Both the position numbers and the translations under genes were made by a program. A DNA stretch of 62,980 bases from an uncultured virus (IMG/VR IMGVR_UViG_3300020416_000657) (taxonomy: Duplodnaviria; Heunggongvirae; Uroviricota; Caudoviricetes), in IMG/VR virus record IMGVR_UViG_3300020416_000657; one strand, written 5' to 3'. The notes under the pieces were generated by a model. It was not told the origin of the DNA and ran no database searches. It was given only the letters and a program-made list of their open reading frames with translations. Below, in pieces: positions 13,754 to 62,766 of this stretch; positions within the stretch are counted from its first letter, which is position 1, and each line of letters starts with the position of its first letter.

Positions 13754-14368
13754 ATGAAAATCGAAGTTGGTCAAAAACTGCCACAAGATATCACTTTTCA
13801 CATGAGGGTGAGGGATGAAAATATGGTGGCACAGGGTGATGATAACCCATACATTTGGCAGATGGTTAATTCAACTGACTTGTTCAAGGATAAAAGGGTA
13901 GTTCTTTTTTCTTTGCCAGGCGCTTTTACTCCAACATGTTCTACTTATCAACTACCAGACTATGACAATAATTACGAATTGTTCAAAGCAAATGGTATTG
14001 ATGAAGTGTATTGTCTATCTGTTAATGATAGTTTTGTTATGAACAAGTGGGGTGATTGGTTGGACATCGATAATGTCAAATTAATTCCAGATGGTAGTGC
14101 TTATTTTACTGAGCAAATGGGTGCATTGGTAAGGAAAGACAATCTAGGATTTGGCGCTAGGTCATGGAGATATTCTTTACTCGCAAATGATGGAGTAGTT
14201 GAAGTCGCATTTGTCGAAGATGGATGTGGTGACGATTGTCCAACAGACCCATATGAAGTGTCTGACCCCTTAACTATGATGGAGTATATTCAAACTGTTA
14301 GTCCAGTAGGTAGACAGCACGAATTAAATCTTGAAGATGGATTGGGAACAGAAGAACAGTTTGCATAA
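13754..14368 (+). CDS. Peroxiredoxin (Prx5 type)
   Basis: SLPGAFTPTCS, SVNDSFVM, GFGARSWRY. Confidence 0.93.
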   Translation: MKIEVGQKLPQDITFHMRVRDENMVAQGDDNPYIWQMVNSTDLFKDKRVVLFSLPGAFTPTCSTYQLPDYDNNYELFKANGIDEVYCLSVNDSFVMNKWGDWLDIDNVKLIPDGSAYFTEQMGALVRKDNLGFGARSWRYSLLANDGVVEVAFVEDGCGDDCPTDPYEVSDPLTMMEYIQTVSPVGRQHELNLEDGLGTEEQFA

Positions 14369-15152
14369 AGTTGATTACGATTTAAAACCTTTATCAAAAG
14401 AACTCGCAATAGATTTTATACAAACGCATCATTATTCACCTATGATGCCTAAACTTACGAAACACTATTTGGGGTGTTTCTTGGAAGGTGAATTAGTAGG
14501 CGTTTTGACTCTGGGATGGGGAACACAACCTAGACAAACAATCAATAAAATGTTTACAGGTCTGGAGTCAAAGCATTACTGGGAGATTGGTAAGATGTGC
14601 ATGACGGATGAAATGCCAACCAATTCCGAATCACAAATGATAAAGAAAACTGTGAGATGGATAAAAGATAATTGTCCAGATGTATTGTTTCTTTATACAA
14701 TGGCAGATGGTATCATGGGTAAGTGTGGATATGTATATCAGGCAAGTAATTTTTTATACGGTGGACAATACTTCACTCAAGTATATGAAATAAATGGTGA
14801 GAAGGTTCACCCAAGAGCAACAAGAAAGTTATGTGAGGAGAACGCAAAGTTCTCTGGCAAAGAGAGAGTTTTTTGGTTGACTTCAGATTTTATGCAAGAG
14901 AAGGGAATCAAAAAAATAGAAGGGTATATGTTTAGATATATCTTTCCGCTGAATAAGAAAGCAAAAAAATTATTGAAAAAATCAAATATGGAATGGACTA
15001 GAACTTATCCAAAAGACCATGACCTAAAATGGTTTGATAAAACATCCAATCCAAAATTTGAAATCGAACAACCTCACTTCACATATGATGAAGTTCTCCA
15101 TAACGCGAGGAATATATCTGGTGGTGGGGCATCTTTAAGAGGAATATTATGA
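14331..15152 (+). CDS. Mom-like GNAT-family DNA modification protein (start may be TTG 14361)
   Basis: HHYS...LVGVLTLG...EIGKMC...NSES...AD...GYVYQASNFLY pattern. Confidence 0.7.
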   Translation: MKMDWEQKNSLHKVDYDLKPLSKELAIDFIQTHHYSPMMPKLTKHYLGCFLEGELVGVLTLGWGTQPRQTINKMFTGLESKHYWEIGKMCMTDEMPTNSESQMIKKTVRWIKDNCPDVLFLYTMADGIMGKCGYVYQASNFLYGGQYFTQVYEINGEKVHPRATRKLCEENAKFSGKERVFWLTSDFMQEKGIKKIEGYMFRYIFPLNKKAKKLLKKSNMEWTRTYPKDHDLKWFDKTSNPKFEIEQPHFTYDEVLHNARNISGGGASLRGIL

Positions 15153-61452: not shown

Positions 61453-61650
61453 GCATACCAGACTTAAACGCATTAGTAATAAGACAATTAGGAGAGCGGG
61501 TAAACGACACACAGAGAGTTCTGTACTTGAACTGTGGAGGGAAAAAAGTGGGAAATAGTGGTAATCTAAATCCGCGAGTGAGCAGGAGTGAGCGCCGCCG
61601 CCCTTCCGAAAAATCAGACGCCGCTGCCGCTCCCAGACGCGGTAAACAGA

Positions 61651-61680
61651 GATCATACCACAGCACAGCACTAATGTCAA
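61651..61680 (-). promoter_or_regulatory. Leftward sigma70-type promoter with GATC overlapping -10
   Basis: Minus strand TTGACA-17-TATGAT(C) with TG extension. Confidence 0.65.
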
Positions 61681-61744
61681 GCACTTTCCGCCATCTGTGG
61701 TGGCAGTGGCTGTGAAAATAATTCGTCTTTTTTGAAGAAAACGC

Positions 61745-61773
61745 TTGACAACTGCTATTTCCATGTGTATAAT
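61745..61773 (+). promoter_or_regulatory. Consensus sigma70 promoter
   Basis: TTGACA-17-TATAAT. Confidence 0.8.
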
Positions 61774-61808
61774 AAGGTGTCGCCTTTAAGAAGAGATATG
61801 GCTGCTGC

Positions 61809-61879
61809 TAAGTGATTGATATATAAGGGAAATAAAAGATAAAATAATCCTTGACATCTGGTCTCATTTATGGGATCAT
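61809..61879 (+). promoter_or_regulatory. IHF-consensus site (reverse) plus promoter with GATCAT -10
   Basis: TAAGTGATTGATA 61809-21; TTGACA 61851-56, 17 nt, GATCAT 61874-79. Confidence 0.8.
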
Positions 61880-61884
61880 ATACA

Positions 61885-62297
61885 CATACTGAGAGATGAG
61901 GAGATTGACCATGGCATGACGATAGATTAAACCCCAGTTAAACCGCACCATCTCACCTGTGTTGAGGTTCAGAAAGAGTGCTATCGGGGTCGGATATGAA
62001 CACAGGGGCCGATTTGAAAGGTGGCATTGACCACGCTCCGATGAGGCCATGGCAGGGGGGACGCAGCCCCATCAAAAGGCGGAGAGAAACTTAAAAGGAG
62101 AGCCCAGTAGGGCAGGGCAGAGTAAGGACTATCTGCTAGCAGGGTTGTGCCTCAATACACACGCGCTCCCCCACGGTTAGGGGAGCATCACTCGGCGAGG
62201 GCAGGGGTCAGGCGGGCCTATGCTTTGGGATCGGGGTGGACGCCCTTACAAGGGCATCTGGCATCCCCCCATATATGAAACGATTTTAATTTTTTTT
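61885..62297 (+). ncRNA. Candidate ~400-nt structured non-coding RNA
   Basis: Follows a strong promoter, no credible ORF, GC-rich relative to the genome, many helices, ends in a GC hairpin and T-run. Confidence 0.6.
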
Positions 62298-62328
62298 GCC
62301 GACAGAAATTTTCCGCCCAGAGGTTTTT

Positions 62329-62766
62329 ATGACAGATATAATTTTTGATGTAGATGGCACTCTTATGGATATAGAACATAGGAGGCATTTCGTCACACAG
62401 CGCCCCAAGGACTTTAAATCGTTTCGAGAACATACAAAATTCGATACTAGAAAAGAGGATATCTTTGCCATTGCGGATGCGTTACAGGCACAGGGGCATC
62501 GTATTCTTATATCTACAGGGCGTATTAAGGATGAGCATGATATCACCGTTAAACAGATACGAGATGGCGGTATAGACTTTGATGCCATATACATGCGTTC
62601 TAATACAGATTACCGTCCCGATGATGAATTAAAAGCAGGATACTTACAGCGTATGCGTTTAGATGGTTACAATCCTACTATGGCATTTGATGACCGTCAG
62701 CGTGTTGTGGATATGTTTCGTTCTAAGGGATTAACAGTATTTCAAGTGGCAGAAGGAGATTTCTAA
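62329..62766 (+). CDS. HAD phosphatase resembling the 3'-phosphatase domain of T4 polynucleotide kinase
   Basis: FDVDGTL, STGR, MR...DYRPD..LK, FDDR..VV.M, QVAEGDF. Confidence 0.88.
   Translation: MTDIIFDVDGTLMDIEHRRHFVTQRPKDFKSFREHTKFDTRKEDIFAIADALQAQGHRILISTGRIKDEHDITVKQIRDGGIDFDAIYMRSNTDYRPDDELKAGYLQRMRLDGYNPTMAFDDRQRVVDMFRSKGLTVFQVAEGDF

Follow-up and report, generated by a model that had tools for sequence, protein, structure and literature searches.

At the end of a genome record from an uncultured ocean phage, a stretch without genes (61885..62297) lies behind an early-type promoter, and the question is what the phage makes from it. Coordinates are those of the window, the whole 62,980-nt stretch of DNA that was analysed, which forms the end of a 125-kb linear virus record (76% complete); a profile scan finds T4-type replication genes in that record, and its DNA polymerase shares 47% identity with cyanophage gp43. 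The stretch sits in the record's largest intergenic gap, and the original prediction, made from the sequence of the window, was a new structured noncoding RNA of about 400 nt, expressed early, or else a G-rich origin transcript. It is indeed the most GC-rich 300 nt of the 125-kb contig (0.587 versus 0.378); as to G-richness, however, it is nothing special, with a GC skew of 0.10-0.17 against 0.2-0.4 in most neighbouring coding windows. The gene that follows it lies outside the RNA:

62329..62766, + strand: HAD/polynucleotide-kinase-family gene, the downstream neighbour (phrog_415, E 7e-34)

Elsewhere in the window, at 14331-15152, there is a Mom-like DNA modification gene (phrog_1384), and a similar-looking ORF occurs near the RNA in locus L223.

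Neighbour and pattern scans found the element in 9 viral contigs, and 23 of the 80 metagenome loci returned by the pattern scan are the true element; viral-contig and metagenome loci together collapse to 16 distinct complete cores. A further pattern scan gave 62 matches, 9 of them with full stem and loop pairing, all previously known homologs. The conserved unit in these homologs is a 157-nt core, 61931-62087 (156-173 nt across variants), rather than one unit of about 400 nt, since the 3' half is swappable and the last ~60 nt are kept even without the core. A covariance model (R1) built from 15 close rows, from which the divergent variants L441 and L423 were excluded, recovers both of them (E 1.5e-36 and 5e-21, respectively) and finds a single copy of the core in the phage's own genome. 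The 16-row alignment used below (A4) was fitted to the nested helices, with the knots absent from the aligning model; L398 (E 0.29), L024 (E 0.48) and a match in G005 (E 0.77) were left out of it as noise, and L278 and L302 as truncated. Locus L385 was rejected on reading as a chance match. BLAST against cultured phages and plasmids returned chance pieces or nothing, and an exact 19-nt pattern of low sensitivity, run on genome contigs, showed no cellular homolog (12 of 12 matches unrelated). At L454:1-94, a long GC-rich near-palindrome matches the scan pattern on both strands and is unrelated to the RNA.

The fold proposed for the core consists of an interrupted stem (P1, P2 and P3) followed by a long and then a short hairpin:

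61931..61990, + strand: core domain 1, with P1 (61931-35/61986-90), P2 (61945-48/61978-81) and P3 (61950-55/61963-68, 7-nt loop)
61956..62006, + strand: loop pseudoknot, P3 loop 61956-62 with 62000-06, from covariation in 16 rows
62007..62048, + strand: core domain 2, a long interrupted hairpin (62007-10/62045-48, 62013-16/62039-42, 62021-24/62031-34)
62055..62087, + strand: core hairpin 62055-59/62066-70 and the 3' strand of the core

With its 3' strand the core may also form two short pseudoknots (62036-38/62082-84 and 61943-44/62078-79), which are tentative because they are nearly or wholly invariant.

Compensatory change among the homologs bears this fold out. Across the 16 distinct cores, 97.6% of 701 helix cells are paired, against 34-49% in slid-partner controls, and 17 of 44 pairs show two-sided changes, a number that stands for far fewer independent events because the rows are related and mosaic; none of 500 shuffles reaches any of the five pairing measures. 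When the 15 close rows were aligned without a model, the paired share was again 97.6%, with 9 of 44 pairs two-sided, while two of the five measures failed to stand out from shuffles (60/500 and 76/500). The 7-bp loop pseudoknot is paired in 100% of cells and two-sided at 5 of its 7 pairs, though four of the pseudoknot's columns can arise from one register shift per strand. P1 is invariant across the 16 rows, while the two-sided changes in P2 (3 of 4 pairs) and P3 (2 of 6) both rest on the divergent row L423; P2 had been proposed before L423 came to light, and held there with 3 two-sided changes. The hairpin 62055-59/62066-70 covaries at 2 of 5 pairs, with 82.5% of its cells paired, and many unpaired bases of the core are invariant in the 16 rows. 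Seven pairs include G-U cells and one includes A-C cells; this excess of G-U points to an RNA of the + strand. Judged from this sequence comparison, the core is a real structured RNA whose fold is preserved by compensatory changes.

The single sequence, by contrast, gives little away. Its minimum free energy is no better than that of shuffles (z -0.24), and the numbers of stems of at least 5, 6, 7 and 8 bp are reached by 152, 158, 92 and 129 of 200 shuffles; stems of at least 4 bp are slightly in excess (7 of 200). The many helices of the original prediction are therefore to be read from the homologs, which support several of them; in the single sequence they are no excess over chance, and several fail. 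Every word it cited is present where it was placed. Of its helices, four are upheld (the loop pseudoknot and three hairpins of the 3' part), a fifth never varies, a sixth survives partly and the other four are lost. Two-sided changes support CCTGTGTT/AACACAGG, which is the loop pseudoknot, and GCTCCCC/GGGGAGC in the homologs, as they do, read by eye in the tails of variants, GCCC/GGGC and GCAGA/TCTGC. GTGG/CCAC is present but invariant, so uninformative, and CTCCG/CGGAG shrinks to CTC/GAG because its last two bases are taken by a covarying helix. Among those lost, position 2 of CGATAG/CTATCG pairs in 3 of 15 rows; the supposedly competing helix TGTGTTGAGG/CCTCAATACA pairs at 10/10 in 3 of 16 variants and at 7-8/10 in 6, with its partner absent in 7; the 5' arm of the long-range TGACC/GGTCA falls in the variable spacer of the mini-gene described below; and GCCCTT/AAGGGC has one pair broken in 3 of 7. 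Three early helices of our own (AACC/GGTT, TCT/AGA and TCGG/CCGA) failed in homologs and were dropped.

Is this a known RNA? Rfam 15 gives no match at the gathering threshold in the window (best 15.4 bits versus 35) and none on the RNA in six homolog loci or in L423, while the positive control, the tmRNA in L146, was detected. The absence of tRNA, tmRNA, RNase P and intron hallmarks noted originally agrees with these searches: ARAGORN and the Rfam models find no tRNA or tmRNA in the window, and no covariance model for RNase P RNA, group I/II introns, known ribozymes or riboswitches matches the window or the homologs. Nor do the family models of ROOL, GOLLD and OLE match the window or the six homolog loci; profiles of these three are in Rfam, and the raiA profile, made by PMC12286853 itself, perhaps falls outside the Rfam test. 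A literature search, with subscription papers mostly outside its reach, returned no description of the RNA, and the four readable tables of the viral structured-RNA catalogue of PMC10690425 hold no match, though its alignments may hold the motif. The prediction of a new structured phage noncoding RNA is thus upheld by the covariation, the lack of an Rfam match, and indels and stops that break the frame of any conserved minus-strand ORF, with its early expression presumed.

Between promoter and fold, the original prediction saw an SD-like word followed only by ORFs of 2-4 codons, and starts behind that word do give 2- and 4-codon ORFs:

61898..61903, + strand: Shine-Dalgarno-like sequence GAGGAG
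61911..61925, + strand: mini-gene ATG-GCA-TGA (61911-61919) with a second in-frame stop, TAG (61923-61925)

The short ORF that had been set aside is itself conserved: all 13 distinct leaders contain an SD-like word, a start codon, one or two codons and UGA. These leaders hold 8 distinct mini-gene sequences, with ATG, GTG or TTG as the start, five different second codons and always TGA as the stop; one codon separates start from stop in 12 of them and two in the remaining one, through an in-frame 3-nt insertion. The UGA ends 9-11 nt before P1 in 13 of 13, and shuffled spacers yield such a mini-gene in 3.5-13.5% of trials per leader, the leaders not being independent. Of the 11 leaders listed, 10 have another stop in frame after one further codon; the mini-gene of L423 has G, not C, after the UGA and no second stop nearby. 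No long + frame is conserved across the core. A stop-codon read-through or frameshift signal was rejected, as no conserved open frame continues past the stop and the second stop is present in 10 of 11 leaders.

Several described systems share parts of this arrangement. ROOL and GOLLD are likewise phage-encoded, pseudoknotted RNAs of unknown function with a conserved part and variable regions, and PMC12286853 cites ribosomes binding GOLLD in pull-downs; many GOLLD RNAs exceed 800 nt, however, compared with a core of 157 nt here, and ROOL and GOLLD lie near tRNA islands (PMC12286853), whereas the 125-kb contig (76% complete) has 0 tRNA genes and the RNA here has a conserved mini-gene at its head. 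The LEE1 operon leader (PMC3262186) contains a two-codon ORF in a long leader, as here, but that mini-gene tunes the next gene by distance, while ours belongs to a conserved pseudoknotted fold and is followed by differing genes. Lambda bar (PMC8012679) is a phage unit of start, one codon and stop with a predicted dipeptide, again as here; it reads AUG-AUA-UAA and starves a tRNA, whereas our leaders always close the mini-gene with UGA, differ among themselves in the second codon and run on into a structured RNA. The layout of bar and LEE1 (SD, start, one or two codons, stop) recurs in the putative mini-genes of 13 of 13 leaders. HK022 put (PMC9378689) is, like our element, a phage RNA structure that directly follows an early promoter, but has two stems in ~70 nt, against 157 nt here in a pseudoknotted, single-copy, optional element with a mini-gene. 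In the T4-type genomes of RB49 and phi1, the PeSL cassettes (PMC2839356) are repeated promoter-SD-start units beside swappable genes, as in this T4-type genome; PeSL is a vehicle, whereas the cargo here is an RNA fold. Our conclusion is that the element represents a real new family among the orphan phage RNAs, and that its mini-gene is a feature we found undescribed for RNAs of this kind. A CsrA sponge was considered and rejected, since the GGA of the hairpin loop is not conserved.

Downstream of the core, from 62088 to 62275, lie interchangeable hairpins and a boundary element, with 143-378 nt of variable hairpins between core and boundary:

62102..62136, + strand: accessory hairpins, the first of which (62102-13) has an expandable loop
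62143..62186, + strand: two-hairpin module (62146-49/62158-61 and 62165-71/62180-86), which also occurs without the core
62214..62275, + strand: right boundary element of a variable early cassette array

The loop of hairpin 62102-13 has 4 nt here and ~30 or ~190 nt in relatives, and is absent in others; in L283, L288 and L302 a ~190-nt domain inside the hairpin (62102-62113) shows apparent compensatory changes of its own among the three variants. The two-hairpin module covaries separately (6 of 11 pairs two-sided in 8 rows, with the second loop invariant), has no Rfam match, and is also found in L005 and L146-type loci, which lack the core. At L146:1473-1517 (6 loci), in another phage, the module stands alone between a porin-like-looking ORF near the tmRNA and a small ORF. 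Its loops may form a pseudoknot. The right boundary is kept in 13 contigs whatever cassette precedes it: among 15 matches to its pattern, 7 accompany the core, 6 accompany protein cassettes instead, 1 is chance and 1 (L386) was left unread. As a candidate function, the boundary element with its A/T tracts (62214-62320) may be a terminator, a processing site or part of an origin. In several variants, the 5' end of the tail can pair with it.

The core thus occupies an optional slot. It is missing from the relatives G001 (91% complete) and G002 (100% complete), and in L005 a protein gene fills the slot behind the same kind of promoter, with the same HAD gene downstream; among carriers of the core the downstream genes differ. 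Promoter-to-ATG cassettes shuffle optional genes in T4-type phages (PMC2839356), and the exchange of core and protein matches this shuffling. Two records of an estimated ~52 kb likewise have core and mini-gene at the head of an operon, including L441, where the core runs straight into the operon and an SD with an ORF follows ~50 nt past it. This ~52-kb phage is unrelated, being unlike T4-type phages in its resolvase, RusA, small terminase and primase-helicase genes, and has the core without boundary elements. Genes of the early operon in L441 are set apart by a repeated G/C hairpin (2170-2200 and ~2800-2830) with an SD directly after it.

Upstream, the IHF/GATC promoter of the original prediction is present, and a further promoter that it missed lies upstream of it:

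61745..61773, + strand: second sigma-70-type promoter sequence, 12/12 consensus, 106 bp further upstream
61809..61821, - strand: putative IHF-type site, exact to the consensus, 30 bp upstream of the -35 box
61851..61879, + strand: TTGACA-17-GATCAT promoter, one of 7 TTGAC..[GT]ATCAT sites in the contig

The remaining TTGAC..[GT]ATCAT sites head GA-rich leaders of protein genes, and an IHF-type site exact to the consensus lies 17-40 bp upstream of 4 of the 7. GATC is depleted ~16-fold contig-wide (26 observed versus ~430 expected), and 8 of the 26 remaining sites lie in or beside promoter -10 boxes, which suggests methylation-sensitive promoter control. The promoter at 61745..61773, in a region conserved in L002-L005, would yield a longer transcript from ~61780. 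A leftward promoter (61680-61652, - strand; 11/12 consensus) has GATC in its -10 box, and the block that it faces, 61515-61680, is conserved in 7 of 7 aligned relatives, core-less ones included. Its transcript would contain a long C/U-rich stretch with unremarkable folding; the block is a candidate small antisense RNA or DNA site.

Public RNA libraries were then considered for the transcript. Among 22 listed marine RNA runs (9 studies), 20 contain part of 61700-62330, with a share of at least 0.2 in 4 and below 0.2 in 16, and contigs lie on the element, including its variant forms and the longer expansion, in 8 of the 8 runs examined among these 20, all of them runs chosen for containing this stretch. 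Since run X1 has contigs on the flanks as well, and pieces from X2, X7 and X8 extend into the promoter, the RNA contigs may stem from DNA or from the upstream promoter; in X2-X4 no contig covers the flanking genes, which proves nothing. The libraries give a weak hint of a core transcript.

With a probability of roughly 0.45, we favour a stand-alone early RNA whose mini-gene would park a host ribosome against the 157-nt pseudoknotted fold. Host RNA polymerase would transcribe the RNA early; a ribosome would initiate, make a di- or tripeptide and stop at the UGA. With the UGA in the A site, P1 would start at about +16 to +18, which by the geometry of the ribosome footprint is its edge, so that the ribosome would contact the fold but leave it unmelted. 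The second stop would bar read-through ribosomes from the fold, and the bound ribosome would shield the 5' end of the RNA from decay while bringing the fold to the ribosome or to a termination or rescue factor; by binding or titrating that target, the RNA would work to the advantage of the phage. Gathered on the same transcript, the 3' hairpins would be accessory modules. What favours this reading is that it accounts for the conserved start codon, the constant spacing, the second stop and the exchange with small early proteins; that the RNA acts alone is supported by the varying downstream genes of the carriers and by the HAD gene that follows a protein cassette in the core-less L005.

An unlikely but serious competitor is a cis-acting leader, in which the fold modifies RNA polymerase in a put-like antitermination or couples translation of the mini-gene to early genes. 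The element always stands directly behind an early-type promoter, as putL does (PMC9378689), the core in L441 leads an operon with its SD and ORF ~50 nt on, and translation of the two-codon LEE1 mini-gene tunes the next gene (PMC3262186). However, the 143-378 nt of variable hairpins between core and boundary, downstream genes that differ, and a gene served equally without the core all speak against such control, as do a fold unlike the two-stem ~70-nt put, the failure of the originally proposed switch helix to be conserved, and the lack of any conserved leader-core alternative pairing in 15 variants (z -0.6 to 1.5; truncated L302 excluded). We regard as improbable a ribozyme or ligand-binding RNA whose mini-gene only stabilises the core or times its folding. 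Small size, multiple pseudoknots and invariant unpaired bases are typical of such RNAs, and the core is compact (156-173 nt), with several pseudoknots and many invariant unpaired bases in 16 rows; but no Rfam ribozyme or riboswitch matches, the + strand has no terminator, the SD-like 3' strand lacks a properly spaced start in the variants read, and the downstream genes share no function.

A replication primer or R-loop RNA of the phage origin is very improbable. Structured primer RNAs exist, as in ColE1 RNA II, and this most GC-rich intergenic block lies between two group-conserved boundary elements with A/T tracts and an IHF-type site adjoining; against this, near-complete relatives keep the boundaries without the core, an unrelated phage has the core without the boundaries, the G skew is below that of the neighbours and the G run is not conserved, and a primer would need neither SD nor start codon. 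The originally proposed G-rich origin transcript is accordingly unsupported for the core, and may apply to the boundary element alone. Scarcely credible, finally, is a decayed gene cassette or hidden small protein gene with pairings arising by chance: single-sequence folding equals that of shuffles and a 60-codon minus-strand ORF covers the core in the window, but the covariation of the core largely refutes this, and the minus-strand ORF was rejected as a conserved gene, with stops or frame-shifting indels in most variants and Met at its start in 2 of 16 rows.

Beyond the parked ribosome itself, we put forward, as a rather doubtful proposal, a class of ribosome-trapping RNAs in which a start-X-UGA mini-gene loads a host ribosome and a pseudoknotted domain at the mRNA entry site holds the ribosome or its release factor. 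If this were true, unrelated marine phages would be trading a gene for host takeover or anti-defence that consists of RNA, and the trapping RNA would fill a slot otherwise taken by small early proteins. Compact, multiply pseudoknotted RNA families are rarely found and often prove catalytic or regulatory, and here a mini-gene at a fixed ribosome-footprint distance from the fold makes the function of the RNA testable. If ribosomes are engaged, the early 'takeover' cassettes of phages would include RNA genes that protein-centred annotation has missed.
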